A model generated the notes under the pieces. It was not told the DNA's origin. It saw nothing but the letters and a program-made list of their open reading frames with translations, and did not search any database. Position numbers and translations under genes: made by a program. A DNA stretch of 64,000 nt from IMG/VR virus record IMGVR_UViG_3300024272_000027. The stretch is one strand, 5' to 3'. Shown piece by piece: positions 14,338 through 58,757 of this stretch (position 1 is the stretch's first letter; each line of letters opens with the position of its first letter). Source of the DNA: a virus. Its lineage: Duplodnaviria; Heunggongvirae; Uroviricota; Caudoviricetes.

Positions 14338-14604
14338 TTATTCCTCCGTTGTACTCTCTTCTGTAACGTCATTATTTTGTTGTTCGTTCTTATCTTTTAT
14401 CACTTTAACAGTTTTTATAGCTGTTAGGGCAACTATCTCTGTACCCCAGAAAGCAAACCACGCATTAGTTAAAGTAGGGCTTACTTCAACACTTGTAAAA
14501 TATTGAAGTACAAAGTTGGATGCTGTGTAAAGTATTATCATTACACATATCAAAACAAGCATTATGTTTGAAACTTTTTTCTTCGGTTTAGGGCTTTTAG
14601 ACAT
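14338..14604 (-). CDS. two-TM membrane protein, holin-like
   Basis: Two hydrophobic helices; coupled to endolysin; start moved to MSKSPK (AAGGAG RBS). Confidence 0.6.
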   Translation of the reverse strand: MSKSPKPKKKVSNIMLVLICVMIILYTASNFVLQYFTSVEVSPTLTNAWFAFWGTEIVALTAIKTVKVIKDKNEQQNNDVTEESTTEE

Positions 14605-16417
14605 TCTTATCGCTCTCCTTATCAATACCAAATAGTTTTATAAAGAATCTAAGAACCTTTTCAAGTAACGCCATAACTACATTTATCTTATCAGTATCAA
14701 GTCCGTCATCAGGCTCAACTTGTGGTTCATCTTTACCGAAATACTTTTCAATGTCAGCATCGGATACAGTTGTTGCTAGTAAGCCGTTTGCAATCTTACG
14801 TATCTTTTGTCCATAAGTATTTTCGGCTTTCATTGCAGCTTCTGGCGTTGAATATGATGCTTTATCATACCCAGGCACTGCCCATCTACCCGCTAACTGT
14901 TCCCAATAAGGAGCAATACCTCTTGTAACATATTTAAAACGTGGGTCTAACACTGTTTCGTTATTGGGTAAAGTATCTTTACATCCATAAGCAAACAAAT
15001 GTTGTAACTGAGCAGTAACACCTTCTTCGATAGTGTTAAACTTACCTCCTTCTATGCCTGTTGATGTTACACCAAGACCACAGTAGTTATGATGTTCTGG
15101 TTTAACTGCTGAGCCTTGATACTTAAACCAACCTGTTTCCAGTATTGATTGCGAAATCGCCCAAGTGGGGTCAATACCATATCTAGGAGCAAGTTTATAG
15201 AAAGCTTTTGCAATTTCAATATCAAAAGAACTATTATTGCTAAGAATATATTTTATTGCTTGTACAACCTCAGTGTCGGAGCTGTCTCTTCCTTTATCAA
15301 CTATCTTCTTAGTAATCGGGAAGTTTAAATCATAAACAGCTGTAACAGTTGTTGTAGTTTCTTTCTTATCATCAGTAGGTGTAACAGGTTTCGGTGCAGG
15401 AGTTGGTTCAACTTTCGGTGCTGTGTAAGCGTAAACCTCTTTACCATTCCAATCAAATACTTTATAACCACTACCAGCTTTTTGACAAGCGTCTTTAGCA
15501 TTAAGTAAAGAACTGAAAGCTCCTACTTGAGACTTACTGTCAGCCCAAGTTTTTCTCACTCTGTATAGTTTTTGCACACTTTCCTCTTGTTTAGGTGCAA
15601 CGTTTTCAGACGGATTTATCCAACTGCCTGCTGATGCTCCAGTACTGTCAACACTGATATTATACATACCGTTAACACCATTTGGATACTTATTATAGAT
15701 GTAGTAAGTTCCAGCCAGTAACTTATCTGTTTTTGCATTAGTTTGTGCTTTTGCGTCTGCTGCTGTAGGATATCTGTTTATACTTGTAACTACTTTATAT
15801 GTTTTACCTGTTGTAGTAGTTGTTTGAGTTTGTTTCTTTGATAACTTTGCTCTTTTAACAATAACATTTACACAAGCTTGAGCACATTGAGTAGCAAACT
15901 TATCAGTAAGTATGATAGGCACATCAGTTTTACTATCCATAAACCCTAATTCAAGTAATACCGCGGGCATATTTGTTTCTCTTACTTCGTGCAAATTTGC
16001 TTTAGCAAGAGGTGTTGCACGATTACCTTTTAGACCTGTTAATGATATAAGTTCATTATAAAGTTCTTTTTGCCAAGCTAAAGTTTCGTTATTTACTGAG
16101 GTATATACAAATGCGGAAATGCCTCCGCCTGTTCCTCCATTTATACCTGCGTTAGCGTGTATAGCAAGATAAAAATCCGCTTTCCACTTGTTTGCTTTAT
16201 CTGTACGTGTTTTTAAAGCTATGTCTGTTTTGCCTGTAGGGTCATCAATACGTAAGACTTCTACACCATTATAGTTTTTAAGTAGATTTTCAATCTTATC
16301 ACAAATACGTCTGTTTAGATAATTCTCTCGTGTTTCATTGGGGTCAAGTGCTTTCATACAGCGTTTACCTGCTGTACTCATTCCGTGACCTGCATTTAAT
16401 GCTAGTTTAAATGACAT
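14597..16417 (-). CDS. endolysin: Amidase_3 + cell-wall-binding segment + glucosaminidase (GH73-like)
   Basis: LNAGHG..E, HANA, LLELGFMD amidase motifs; LYRVRKTW..KSQVGAF binding segment; AISQSILETGW..HNYCGLG..FNTIEEGVTAQLQHL glucosaminidase motifs. Confidence 0.88.
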   Translation of the reverse strand: MSFKLALNAGHGMSTAGKRCMKALDPNETRENYLNRRICDKIENLLKNYNGVEVLRIDDPTGKTDIALKTRTDKANKWKADFYLAIHANAGINGGTGGGISAFVYTSVNNETLAWQKELYNELISLTGLKGNRATPLAKANLHEVRETNMPAVLLELGFMDSKTDVPIILTDKFATQCAQACVNVIVKRAKLSKKQTQTTTTTGKTYKVVTSINRYPTAADAKAQTNAKTDKLLAGTYYIYNKYPNGVNGMYNISVDSTGASAGSWINPSENVAPKQEESVQKLYRVRKTWADSKSQVGAFSSLLNAKDACQKAGSGYKVFDWNGKEVYAYTAPKVEPTPAPKPVTPTDDKKETTTTVTAVYDLNFPITKKIVDKGRDSSDTEVVQAIKYILSNNSSFDIEIAKAFYKLAPRYGIDPTWAISQSILETGWFKYQGSAVKPEHHNYCGLGVTSTGIEGGKFNTIEEGVTAQLQHLFAYGCKDTLPNNETVLDPRFKYVTRGIAPYWEQLAGRWAVPGYDKASYSTPEAAMKAENTYGQKIRKIANGLLATTVSDADIEKYFGKDEPQVEPDDGLDTDKINVVMALLEKVLRFFIKLFGIDKESDKNV

Positions 16418-16430
16418 ATTGATTCCTCCT

Positions 16431-17660
16431 CTATTTATTGTTAGGTAAATCAGTGATAGTTAGTCGAGAGTTACTTGGTCCTACCATATAACAATCAACT
16501 ATGTTTTTAAACTGGTTACCAATTTTTATTTTCATATCAACTTTAAATTTTAAAGCATCACTGAAGTAGTAGTTGTTTTCTGCGACATCAATTTGTCCAC
16601 TTTTTAATTTATAGTAGTAAAGACTTGATATGATGGGGTAGTAAACGGTAGTGAGACTATAACAGTTAGTGAACGCAGAGTATCCAATATTCACTGTGTT
16701 ACTACTCATATAAATTGTGTGTAAGTTTGAACAGTTTTCAAAACAATATTGAGGGATTGTTGTCAACTTATTAGATAGTGTAACTGTAGTAAAAACACCT
16801 CCGCTAAAACAATACGAACTTAATTCAACAACATTATCTGGAATTATAACATTGCTAGCAGGTATTCTACCAAAACAACGTGAAGTTACGTATTTAGTGT
16901 CGGACGTAAATGTGAAAGTGTCCACCACCACTCCAGCAAATGCATAAGGAGTTATATTAGTAATAGTTCCTGCAAGTACTAATCTATCGATATAAACTAT
17001 GGGGTCACCAATAGATATAGTTCGTTCAAATGCATTGTCACCTATATATTTTATAGTAGATGGTAGCGATATATGTAACACTCCTGTATACTGATTATCA
17101 TAGAAGGCATAATCAGCTATAATAGTTGTACCATACAAGATATTTTCAATTTCCCGTCTGTTAAGGTTGCAACCACGAAAAGCGCTTTGAGGGACATATT
17201 CTTGGTCTTGTAAGTTGAGCCATCTATATTCATTGAATTCAAAATCAAGCTTACTACAGTTTTGAAATGTAGACACCCCAATTTGATTTACACAGTTACC
17301 ACTGGTCCATATGTATTCAAGATTGTTGCAGCCCATAAAAGCACGGTCACCTAGTGTGCAACAATTAGGAGGAAGGGTAACTTGCGTTGTTGTAGTATTT
17401 CCTTCAAAAGCTCCTTGAGTAACGTTACCATCATAATCTGTTTTACCAATGACGGCGTGTACAGGCACACTCACATATGAACTAGTCTCTGAGTGTAGAG
17501 CTTGTACAGTTGAAGGTACTTGTACCATCTCTTCTGGCACATTTCCTTCCCAAGTGCTTATATAAGGACCGTTATAGCGAGTAATCACAGCATATGTACC
17601 TGATTGTCCAACTATTCCTACAGTTTCAAATTCCCATTCGCCTAAATCTGGCATAGCCAT
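16431..17660 (-). CDS. BspA-type leucine-rich-repeat protein, candidate receptor-binding protein
   Basis: Repeats such as VTLPPNCCTLGDRAFMGCNNL, TLSNKLTTIPQYCFENCSNL; in tail-fibre cluster. Confidence 0.85.
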   Translation of the reverse strand: MAMPDLGEWEFETVGIVGQSGTYAVITRYNGPYISTWEGNVPEEMVQVPSTVQALHSETSSYVSVPVHAVIGKTDYDGNVTQGAFEGNTTTTQVTLPPNCCTLGDRAFMGCNNLEYIWTSGNCVNQIGVSTFQNCSKLDFEFNEYRWLNLQDQEYVPQSAFRGCNLNRREIENILYGTTIIADYAFYDNQYTGVLHISLPSTIKYIGDNAFERTISIGDPIVYIDRLVLAGTITNITPYAFAGVVVDTFTFTSDTKYVTSRCFGRIPASNVIIPDNVVELSSYCFSGGVFTTVTLSNKLTTIPQYCFENCSNLHTIYMSSNTVNIGYSAFTNCYSLTTVYYPIISSLYYYKLKSGQIDVAENNYYFSDALKFKVDMKIKIGNQFKNIVDCYMVGPSNSRLTITDLPNNK

Positions 17661-55126: not shown

Positions 55127-55158
55127 ATTATAATATAAAAGCAGGCAAATATCAACTA
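55127..55158 (-). promoter_or_regulatory. sigmaA-type promoter TAG-TTGATA-17-TATAAT overlapping terminator
   Basis: Member of YAGTTG-N20-TATAAT family. Confidence 0.8.
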
Positions 55159-55169
55159 TACTTGCCTGC
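55141..55169 (-). terminator. intrinsic terminator overlapping -35
   Basis: gcaggcaa / ttgcctgc then TTTTATATT on minus strand. Confidence 0.75.
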
Positions 55170-56685: not shown

Positions 56686-56950
56686 TTTCTTTATCCTCTT
56701 TTAGTTTTTCAACATCGCTGTTAAATTGTTTTATATCTTTATTATAATATTGTAATGATGGATATACAACTTTATCTCTGTATGCTTTGTTAAACCAGCT
56801 ATATTCCCAACCAAACGTAACTAAATCATCGTAAGGTTCAATATGTTTAACTGAACATTCTAAACAATATGTTCTACCCTCTTTAACAAGAGCGCTCTGA
56901 ACTGTTTGATTAAACTTATCTTCTTTACCACAGATACAGCATTTATCCAT
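56678..56950 (-). CDS. Zn-finger protein
   Basis: CCICG...YCLEC. Confidence 0.65.
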   Translation of the reverse strand: MDKCCICGKEDKFNQTVQSALVKEGRTYCLECSVKHIEPYDDLVTFGWEYSWFNKAYRDKVVYPSLQYYNKDIKQFNSDVEKLKEDKENG

Positions 56951-57747
56951 TACAGTTCCTCTTGAAGAGATAATCGGATTGCTCTAACAAGCATATCTGA
57001 CATAATAGCATCAACTTCATTATCAATTTCCACTGAGTGTGAATCCATATACGCCTGTTTTACTGCTTTAACATAATCAACAGTCTCACTAGCAATCAAC
57101 TTTGCTTGTGCTAAGTTATAATAGTATGTTGATTTTACTTTCACTAAGTACTCAGGGTTTGTAGGTATTAAGCACTCTTCATAAGGAACACCTTCAATAT
57201 ATCGGTCAAGGAACTCACTACATCTTAAGATATGATGTAACTGTTTATTATCATAGCCATACTTTTCAATCTTATCTTTGAGTGTAGGATAAGGATGACA
57301 CAATGCAGCATTCTTCTCCATAACCATACCCGCTATGCAGTTAATACCAGCGTAGTTATTATAACGAGCAATACGCTCTTTATATGTTTGCATTGTGCTC
57401 CATATATGAGTATATCCTGCATTAACTATATAATAATCAGTGAACAGTATTTCTAAGAAATTTATATTCTGCTTCTTGAAGCATTGCCACATCAACCGAA
57501 TATCTTTCAAATCAATATGTGAGTTATCTTCTCTAATATGAGTAGTGCTTACAGGAGATTTGTTTAACACAATATCTTCTAGTGTGGGCAATACAATAAC
57601 TTTTGTATCAATATCAGAGCCTTCATAATCTAGATGATAATTCTGCGAACCTTGCAAGAATACACCGAACACTTTATGTCCCATATCCTGCACCGTTTTA
57701 ATATCACTTTTTAAACGGTCAAATATCTTCTTATCTTTATCAGTCAT
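56950..57747 (-). CDS. Pol-beta nucleotidyltransferase (Nuc-transf/RlaP-like)
   Basis: LQGSQNY.LD..GSDIDTK, KQNINFLEILF motifs. Confidence 0.85.
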   Translation of the reverse strand: MTDKDKKIFDRLKSDIKTVQDMGHKVFGVFLQGSQNYHLDYEGSDIDTKVIVLPTLEDIVLNKSPVSTTHIREDNSHIDLKDIRLMWQCFKKQNINFLEILFTDYYIVNAGYTHIWSTMQTYKERIARYNNYAGINCIAGMVMEKNAALCHPYPTLKDKIEKYGYDNKQLHHILRCSEFLDRYIEGVPYEECLIPTNPEYLVKVKSTYYYNLAQAKLIASETVDYVKAVKQAYMDSHSVEIDNEVDAIMSDMLVRAIRLSLQEEL

Positions 57748-57752
57748 ATGTA

Positions 57753-58190
57753 TTAATCATCGCTTTCTATAGTTTCAGTAATCGGTACAATCTCACAACC
57801 TGCCACCCAAGATGAGCTCCAGCACTCCATTGCAGCTTCTGCTTTCTTATAACTGTTATATGTTTTGATTGCAGCATTTCCGATATCATTTATTTTCTTA
57901 AAATGGAATTGTCGTGAAAGACCACATAATATTTCAGTGCGATTATGTTTTAATATCACGTATCGTGTACGTTGAATCTTCAACTTAGTTGTGTCATTAT
58001 TCTTAACTCTTTCCAACTCTTGCTCAAGTACACGGATGTCTTCGTCATATTGATTAAGTTTGCTATTCAGCTCATCAGTGGAATAAATTGAAGGAAACGC
58101 TTTTATCAGCAGTTTGCCCGCACGCAGCTGATTTACTGTACTTTGAAGTTCTTCAGCACTCATCATAACTTTAGCTAACACACTAATCAC
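57753..58190 (-). CDS. hypothetical protein
   Basis: 145-aa ORF. Confidence 0.7.
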   Translation of the reverse strand: MISVLAKVMMSAEELQSTVNQLRAGKLLIKAFPSIYSTDELNSKLNQYDEDIRVLEQELERVKNNDTTKLKIQRTRYVILKHNRTEILCGLSRQFHFKKINDIGNAAIKTYNSYKKAEAAMECWSSSWVAGCEIVPITETIESDD

Positions 58191-58329
58191 TTCCTAATTT
58201 CTGTTTATGCTTTTCTTTTCTATTGTAAGAACCTTTACCCTTCTTGTTTTCAATCTTAAAACCGCGTTTCTTAAAGTGCAAAAACAATTGGAGTTCTTCA
58301 GGCTTCATCTTAAACGCTCTTTTATCCAT
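58183..58329 (-). CDS. 48-aa ArfA-like alternative ribosome-rescue peptide, missing from track
   Basis: MDKRAFKMKPEELQLFLHFKKRGFKIENKKGKGSYNRKEKHKQKLGSD; NKKGKGSYxRKxKH matches E. coli ArfA (NKKGKGSYMRKGKH). Confidence 0.7.
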   Translation of the reverse strand: MDKRAFKMKPEELQLFLHFKKRGFKIENKKGKGSYNRKEKHKQKLGSD

Positions 58330-58330
58330 A

Positions 58331-58678
58331 TCATTTACCCTTTGTATCAACAGGTGTTACTATTGGAATACCTTTATAGTCGTAGTAATTACCGTAGCTG
58401 TCTCTGTACCCTGCTCCAGGCGTCCAAACCTTATCCACTTGCCAACTTATAGGATGAGCACCGCCTGTTTTCGGTGTGGTGGATTCATAATCTGATGTTC
58501 TTGGTGTTAAGTGATTTCCAGCCCCTGTAGTAATCTTAAACTTACCGCATAAGATACATACTGCTATCCATATCAATATCGGACCACAAATTATTCCAAC
58601 CCAGATATCAAAATCAATATTAGCAACAAGCCATATTAAAAATAGTACTGTAATTACTTGTATAATCCGTTTTTTCAT
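58331..58678 (-). CDS. two-TM membrane protein
   Basis: 115 aa; first after promoter. Confidence 0.7.
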   Translation of the reverse strand: MKKRIIQVITVLFLIWLVANIDFDIWVGIICGPILIWIAVCILCGKFKITTGAGNHLTPRTSDYESTTPKTGGAHPISWQVDKVWTPGAGYRDSYGNYYDYKGIPIVTPVDTKGK

Positions 58679-58703: not shown

Positions 58704-58735
58704 ATTATATATTATAAATAGAAAGGACTCAACTA
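58704..58735 (-). promoter_or_regulatory. sigmaA-type promoter TAG-TTGAGT-17-TATAAT overlapping terminator
   Basis: Member of YAGTTG-N20-TATAAT family. Confidence 0.8.
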
Positions 58736-58757
58736 TTTATTTGACAGTTGAGTTCTT
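58723..58757 (-). terminator. intrinsic terminator whose 3' arm is the -35 region
   Basis: AAGAACTCAACTG...TAGTTGAGTCCTT then TCTATTT on minus strand. Confidence 0.7.

Follow-up and report, generated by a model that had tools for sequence, protein, structure and literature searches.

The window analysed here, a 64,000-nt stretch of DNA, belongs to a 161.5-kb IMG/VR virus record (IMGVR_UViG_3300024272_000027) that is 96% complete, has a G+C content of 36%, and carries 26 tRNA genes in addition to head, portal, protease and endolysin genes. The locus of interest is a 48-codon open reading frame on the minus strand, the product of which is MDKRAFKMKPEELQLFLHFKKRGFKIENKKGKGSYNRKEKHKQKLGSD, followed by TAG. 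The features of this locus and of its surroundings are listed in Table 1. The original prediction described a 48-residue frame that contains IENKKGKGSYNRKEKHK and ends seven residues past a KH pair, and the translation of 58183-58329 agrees exactly with this description. Additionally, the sequence EKNKKGKGSYMRKGKH that had been given for E. coli ArfA was confirmed by translating arfA from NC_000913.3.

Table 1. Positions of the ArfA-like gene, its parts and the surrounding features in the window.
Feature	Position	Strand	Basis and remarks
ArfA-like mini-protein CDS, 48 aa	58183..58329	-	ATG 58329, stop TAG 58183-58185; translation, family conservation, purifying selection
ArfA-type tail, residues 27-42, ENKKGKGSYNRKEKHK, predicted mRNA-channel binder	58204..58251	-	Pfam and PDB matches, hhalign versus shuffled controls
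Family-specific amphipathic helix, residues 10-21, PEELQLFLHFKK	58267..58302	-	AlphaFold2 pLDDT 85-91; near-invariant E11, E12, L13, Q14 and L15
Shine-Dalgarno-like AAGGG	58338..58342	-	8 nt 5' of ATG 58329
Predicted membrane protein, 115 aa	58331..58678	-	Directly upstream of the ArfA-like gene and translationally coupled to it; 37%-identical homologue in the same position in L003
Terminator-like hairpin overlapping a promoter-like site, TTGAGT-17-TATAAT	58704..58753	-	Consensus matches only
145-aa protein overlapping the 3' end of the ArfA-like gene	57753..58190	-	No family match
Nucleotidyltransferase, 265 aa, phrog_388	56950..57747	-	Syntenic partner in L003, L004, L005 and L029
AAA_33/polynucleotide-kinase-like P-loop kinase, 312 aa	55747..56685	-	C-terminal HD read from sequence only, without a Pfam match
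Calcineurin-like metallophosphoesterase, 276 aa	59108..59938	-	Family matches
Thg1-like 3'-5' polymerase (tRNA 5'-end repair), 264 aa	60626..61420	-	Family matches

The TGA of the upstream 115-aa gene lies at 58331-58333, and a single nucleotide separates it from the ATG of the ArfA-like gene. This ATG is favoured over a TTG at 58350 because close homologues start with MDK(R/K). Strong ribosome-binding sites of the GGAGG/AGGAG type precede the gene in all 22 of the homologous loci examined, where the products have 42-55 aa, and the pairwise dN/dS values among relatives range from 0.02 to 0.2, with synonymous sites near saturation. A search of 5.8 billion proteins returned 94 related clusters at 90% identity (41-82 aa), and an exhaustive profile search with a cut-off of E ≤ 1e-3 returned 288 clusters at 50% identity. 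Among the PHROGs, the gene falls into phrog_37108, which bears no functional label, and the match to its profile is full-length (residues 3-44 against positions 4-46 of 48, E 9.3e-7). The Shine-Dalgarno-like sequence, the one-nucleotide spacing, the dN/dS values and the approximately 290 clusters together establish that 58183-58329 is a real gene. A chance open frame that is not expressed would be compatible with a length of just 48 codons, which lies under the ORF cut-off applied for the original prediction, but this reading is scarcely credible in the face of the Shine-Dalgarno site, a translationally coupled start and purifying selection, and of a PHROG family of its own with homologues conserved in the hundreds of clusters.

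An NCBIfam search with the 48-aa protein and a megablast search of the region against isolated phages gave no match. One protein that matches the family profile, the 1108-aa repeat protein P0336, was rejected as a low-complexity false positive. Five family members (P0246, P0273, P0280, P0287 and P0307) are 100-257 aa long and run far past the usual stop into unrelated sequence, which may reflect another genetic code in the gene calls, read-through, or fusions.

An HMM comparison with ArfA had been proposed as a check, and its outcome is divided: residues 27-42 match positions 29-44 of the 44 in the ArfA profile PF03889 with an E-value of 4.5e-5, but the score of 23.3 bits misses the gathering threshold of 25.5 bits, and the 16 aligned residues are those of the basic motif. 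In the Pfam scan of the 48-aa protein at E-values up to 10, ArfA is the only family returned, and DUF7230 gives no match. Across the family, 78 of the 79 members scanned have ArfA matches at E<0.01; a few weak Eco57I matches are also present, and DUF7230 is again absent. A precomputed PF03889 match is found in about 10 of the 94 related clusters. When the family profile is searched against the PDB, chains of ArfA are the sole matches (E 1e-4). In the single-sequence PDB search, rows for designer PPR proteins outranked ArfA; these were rejected as spurious, as they consist of nine weak amphipathic-helix repeats, each of which is insignificant.

Alignment with hhalign places residues F19-D48 of the phage protein on F25-E52 of enterobacterial ArfA (probability 95.4%, E 1.7e-8). 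With MAFFT alignments of 227 family sequences and 46 canonical sequences, the canonical profile consisting of enterobacterial sequences and four phage homologues, the probability is 95.9%, the E-value 6e-9 and the score 43.7. The reversed control and 30 column-shuffled controls score between 5 and 16, with probabilities of at most 4.4%, and composition therefore does not explain the match. The tail of the phage protein is homologous to that of ArfA: both the KGKGS loop and the R..K.KH motif are present when NKKGKGSYNRKEKH is compared with NKKGKGSYMRKGKH of ArfA, and the similar stretch, which is statistically specific, comprises the C-terminal 20-28 residues (NKKGKGSYxRKxKH). Among 224 members, the positions after GS[YF] are occupied by R at +2 (223/224), K or R at +3, K at +5 and H at +6 (120/224), which correspond to R41, K42, K44 and H45 of ArfA.

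A short basic motif could also arise by convergence on the conserved rRNA channel, as the similar KKGGS of ArfT, which is not considered homologous, illustrates, and the detectable ArfA similarity of the phage protein is about 20-28 residues long and rich in K and G. In that case, the protein might be a small basic cofactor or chaperone that binds RNA or tRNA and serves the neighbouring RNA-repair enzymes, or it might bind nucleic acids in some other role, and the ribosome would not be its target. Such a generic origin of the motif appears improbable, because the invariant residues include the non-basic G, G, S and Y/F as well as H in the exact spacing of ArfA, because the match lies far above the composition-preserving controls, and because the tail lengths are tightly clustered at the length that ArfA needs.

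In E. coli ArfA, residues 31-48 lie in the tunnel; a cut at N47 (Y39+8) is tolerated and shorter forms are inactive, and the mature protein has 52-55 aa. The tails of the 224 family members extend mostly 9-15 residues beyond GS[YF], with a median of 13, and the product of 58183-58329 stops at the equivalent of ArfA residue 52. The phage gene ends with its own TAG seven codons past KH and lacks both the RNase III/terminator hairpin and the hydrophobic C-terminal extension of arfA. Its 3' region folds no better than shuffled sequences (z +0.37), in contrast to the strong 3' hairpin of the E. coli arfA control (z -4.06). Non-stop regulation is thus absent from the phage gene, and the prediction that it encodes a form equivalent to the truncated, active ArfA is upheld by the position of the stop and by the missing hairpin.

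No terminator-like site was found inside or just after 58183-58329; the next one, a consensus match only, is at 55141-55169. This arrangement suggests a single transcription unit that would extend from the promoter-like site at 58704-58753 to 55141-55169 and would include the 115-aa membrane protein, the ArfA-like protein, the 145-aa protein, the nucleotidyltransferase, a 90-aa Cys-rich protein and the kinase-HD fusion.

The N-terminal half differs from that of ArfA. It bears a near-invariant signature, K-x(3)-EELQ-x-[YFW]-[LM]-x-F-[KR]-[KR]-R-G, and a conserved I/V is located two residues ahead of the N/P/S that precedes KKGKGS. In ArfA, the minidomain (A18, and a hydrophobic patch of L19, L24 and F25 that binds W319 of RF2) and the strand Q27-E30, which augments the domain-2 sheet of RF2, recruit and activate the release factor. 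The minidomain has no demonstrable counterpart in the N-terminal half of the phage protein, where a different conserved helix is present: when the part before NKKGKGS is aligned with its ArfA counterpart, the hhalign score is 7.9, compared with an average of 6.6 and a maximum of 12.0 for 60 shuffles. The segment EELQLFLH is aligned with NAIEALLH of ArfA only in alignments that include the tail, and because the N-terminal score falls within the shuffled range, this pairing depends on the anchoring by the tail and does not count as separate evidence. The extension of the hhalign alignment into the N-terminal helix was consequently rejected as a sign of homology. Similarly, the G-F-K-I-E segment aligns with R-Q-R-V-E of ArfA, in the region of the mid-protein strand, only under tail anchoring and has no independent significance. 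The predicted likeness to ArfA is accordingly demonstrable for the tail, whereas none is detectable for the N-terminal half taken alone.

The AlphaFold2 model of the phage protein contains one helix (residues 10-21) and is otherwise mostly coil. A Foldseek search of this model against the PDB returned no match, and with a model of one helix plus coil the fold comparison is uninformative. At the level of general organization, the hydrophobic helix, the conserved aromatic position and the I/V directly ahead of the tail are analogous to elements of ArfA. In RF2, the hydrophobic patch of ArfA contacts V/I198, F217 and W319; these residues are conserved in the RF2 of two Acutalibacteraceae MAGs in which family members occur, which serves as a plausibility check only. 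As the N-terminal half alone has no detectable similarity to the ArfA minidomain, the recruitment of RF2 by the phage protein is an inference.

The same observations bear on a reading in which the tail binds the empty mRNA channel and the outcome is not release-factor-dependent rescue. In one variant, the protein would compete with SmpB-tmRNA and thereby spare phage proteins translated from damaged messages the tagging and degradation; in others, it would engage another partner through its N-terminal helix, or would park or inhibit host ribosomes. Taken jointly, these variants form the main rival reading, although a rather unlikely one. They accord with the finding that only the tail is ArfA-like and that the N-terminal half is distinct, strongly conserved and dissimilar to the RF2-activating minidomain, and a review raises the C-terminal peptides of rescue factors as possible inhibitors, citing a peptide that blocks the binding of tmRNA-SmpB (PMC8012679). 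However, the overall architecture is that of ArfA, with a hydrophobic helix, a short linker and a basic tail within 45-55 aa and with the conserved aromatic and I/V residues, and the hydrophobic patch is the part of ArfA that binds RF2. Moreover, ArfA and BrfA are species-specific, and divergence of the N-terminal half is therefore expected if the factor must fit the RF2 of a different host.

The gene neighbourhood agrees with the RNA-repair genes noted in the original prediction. In the window, the ArfA-like gene is accompanied by the Thg1-like polymerase, a DUF5662 protein, the metallophosphoesterase, the nucleotidyltransferase and the AAA_33 kinase-HD fusion, and this gene order is preserved in the loci L003, L004/L005 and L029 at 48-67% identity. 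In a second group of lineages (L017, L020-L028 and L030-L032), the order is phosphoesterase, two small proteins, ArfA-like protein, HAD_SAK_2 protein, AAA_33 kinase and RNA ligase, in which HAD_SAK_2 denotes a 'Swiss Army Knife RNA repair' domain. The two small conserved proteins of this group (L023:5415-6001 (+); L017, L020-L032) have approximately 93 and 108 aa and no Pfam match and are invariably located between the phosphoesterase and the ArfA-like gene, and the end of the 108-aa gene meets the start codon of the ArfA-like gene. Approximately 3 kb downstream of the ArfA-like gene, one of these loci encodes an NMN transporter of the PnuC type together with a NadR-type, cytidylyltransferase-like protein (L023:9248-10407 (+)). 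In a third group (L006-L009), a TROVE/Ro-like gene (L006:1689-3488) and a beta-CASP metallo-beta-lactamase RNase gene (L006:7800-9113) flank the ArfA-like gene.

In L019, a DUF2828/DUF7788 protein is followed by the ArfA-like gene. For L010-L016, L018, L037, L039 and Enterococcus phage EF1, the flanking genes either give no clue or are nucleotide-metabolism genes and tRNAs, and no informative Pfam match was obtained among the neighbours in L010, L013, L018, L037 and L039. Arrays of hypothetical genes that offer no information make up about half of the lineage contexts. The linkage to RNA repair and quality control is recurrent yet not universal, and the immediate neighbour varies. The position directly beside RNA-repair enzymes in several lineages would suit the cofactor or chaperone considered above, but the adjacent enzyme differs between lineages (nucleotidyltransferase, HAD_SAK_2 protein or none), which argues against a dedicated subunit. 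Elsewhere in the same phage, outside the window, an RNA ligase (PF09414, 59 bits) is encoded at 16007-16546 of the genome contig (locus L044) and complements the end-healing enzymes of the window; no release-factor gene or RtcB was found in the phage genome.

The ArfA-like family is essentially phage-borne: seven Enterococcus phage records contain members, as do 30 IMG/VR contigs, mostly of 50-190 kb, and among 185,579 species genomes the family occurs in just five contigs, all of them from Clostridia MAGs. The best clue to the host within the window is a 606-aa two-domain endolysin (amidase plus glucosaminidase) at 14597-16417 (-), the relatives of which belong, with few exceptions, to phages that infect Bacillus, Geobacillus, Paenibacillus, Faecalibacterium and Clostridioides. 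In light of the endolysin relatives, the Enterococcus phages and the Clostridia MAG contigs, the host of this large, gut-type phage is probably a member of the Bacillota, in line with the earlier suggestion of a probable Firmicute phage. Bacillota hosts natively use tmRNA and RqcH, to which BrfA is added in the B. subtilis group of the Firmicutes, and they are reported to be without ArfA and ArfB.

Judged from sequence, there is about an even chance that the product of 58183-58329 is a constitutive, phage-supplied sensor of the empty mRNA channel that, like ArfA, triggers release-factor-dependent rescue. In this mechanism, the basic tail NKKGKGSYNRKEKHK... would enter the mRNA channel left empty when a 70S ribosome stalls on the 3' end of a broken mRNA, in the manner of residues 31-48 of ArfA. 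The N-terminal helix and the short hydrophobic segment ahead of the tail would then engage a class-I release factor of the host, most likely RF2, which would hydrolyse the peptidyl-tRNA so that the ribosome can be recycled. Because the gene carries a stop codon of its own and lacks a 3' hairpin, the factor would be made whenever the operon is transcribed and would not be held in reserve by trans-translation. It is predicted to be co-transcribed with RNA end-repair enzymes, and its likely role would be to maintain a supply of ribosomes for phage translation during the cleavage of mRNAs or tRNAs, either by defence nucleases of the host or in the course of the host shut-off by the phage itself.

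A broader proposal is offered more tentatively, and we would lean against its holding in full: that phages of Bacillota, including cultured Enterococcus phages, supply a constitutive ArfA-type factor, the remodelled N-terminus of which recruits the RF2 (or RF1) of Gram-positive bacteria, and that this factor, together with phage tRNAs and RNA-repair enzymes, counters defence nucleases that cut mRNA or tRNA. If true, release-factor-dependent rescue would reach a large clade with ArfA tails in phages of Gram-positive hosts, and phages, already known to carry tRNAs and RNA end-repair enzymes, would gain ribosome rescue as a further tool. In its distinct N-terminus, the family would provide a natural experiment on the adaptation of a tiny peptide to the release factor of another host. 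As homologues are present in the cultured Enterococcus phages EF1, EF5, H1 and VRE9_1-4, the idea is directly testable.

Among the known rescue factors, the closest in its tail is ArfA (YhdL) of E. coli and other gamma- and betaproteobacteria (PF03889; PDB 5MDV, 5U4I, 5MGP and 5H5U), which is similarly small, has in common with the phage protein the channel-filling tail NKKGKGSYxRKxKH and a preceding hydrophobic helix, and has a mature length of 52-55 aa within which the end of the phage protein falls. The phage gene differs from arfA in its own stop, in the missing hairpin and hydrophobic C-terminal extension, and in being phage-borne and linked to Bacillota rather than to proteobacteria; the described range of ArfA is limited to gamma- and some betaproteobacteria (PMC11633108). 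BrfA (YqkK) of B. subtilis is an RF2-dependent factor of Bacillota that also places its tail in the mRNA channel and has the KH motif in common with ArfA, but it is regulated via non-stop mRNA and is limited to the Bacillus genus. BrfA (PDB 6SZS) is not among the PDB matches at E-values up to 10 with the single sequence or up to 1 with the profile. ArfT of Francisella tularensis, with 40 aa and a basic stretch of the KKGGS type, demonstrates that very small tailed proteins can rescue ribosomes; it works with RF1 or RF2 and is not deemed a homologue of ArfA.

The description of the gene as hidden does not stand, since some family members had already been labelled ArfA by JGI and phage ArfA has been published for proteobacterial phages. 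Citromicrobium phage RXM g10 is annotated as ArfA (PMC8953757), as is gp30 of pelagiphage HTVC027P, which is transcribed both early and late in infection (PMC12753301), and Pseudoalteromonas phage J2-1 carries an annotated ArfA. The proteobacterial phage proteins (RXM, HTVC027P, J2-1, Arash and pf16) are likewise short and 'pre-truncated', with their own stop soon past the basic tail, but they have the canonical N-terminus HxxRG..A..AL..DPLFR and can be aligned with ArfA over most of their length. In the present family, which occurs in Enterococcus phages, uncultured phage contigs and Clostridia MAG contigs, EELQxYLxF+RG replaces this N-terminus. In their jumbo-phage survey, Iyer et al. regard RNA repair and ribosome rescue as an established strategy of phages and do not list ArfA. 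Interest in the locus is thus tempered by the fact that ArfA genes of proteobacterial phages have already been annotated and discussed; what is new is the combination of an ArfA tail with another N-terminal module, borne by phages whose hosts are Gram-positive.

Two further ArfA homologues were observed among the proteobacterial phages. Pseudomonas phage pf16 (KU873925.1) contains an unannotated ORF of the canonical type with SAVGALVTSPLFRSKTEKPKKGKGSYRREK (L041:3986-4138 (+)), the 5' end of which is partly overlapped on the opposite strand by the hypothetical CDS pf16_199 of the record. In Salmonella phage Arash (OQ632216.1), gp99c (L040:3917-4141 (+)), which is labelled 'ribosomal protein L2', is an ArfA homologue with 63% identity to residues 4-41 of E. 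coli ArfA and lies inside the tRNA gene cluster of the phage.
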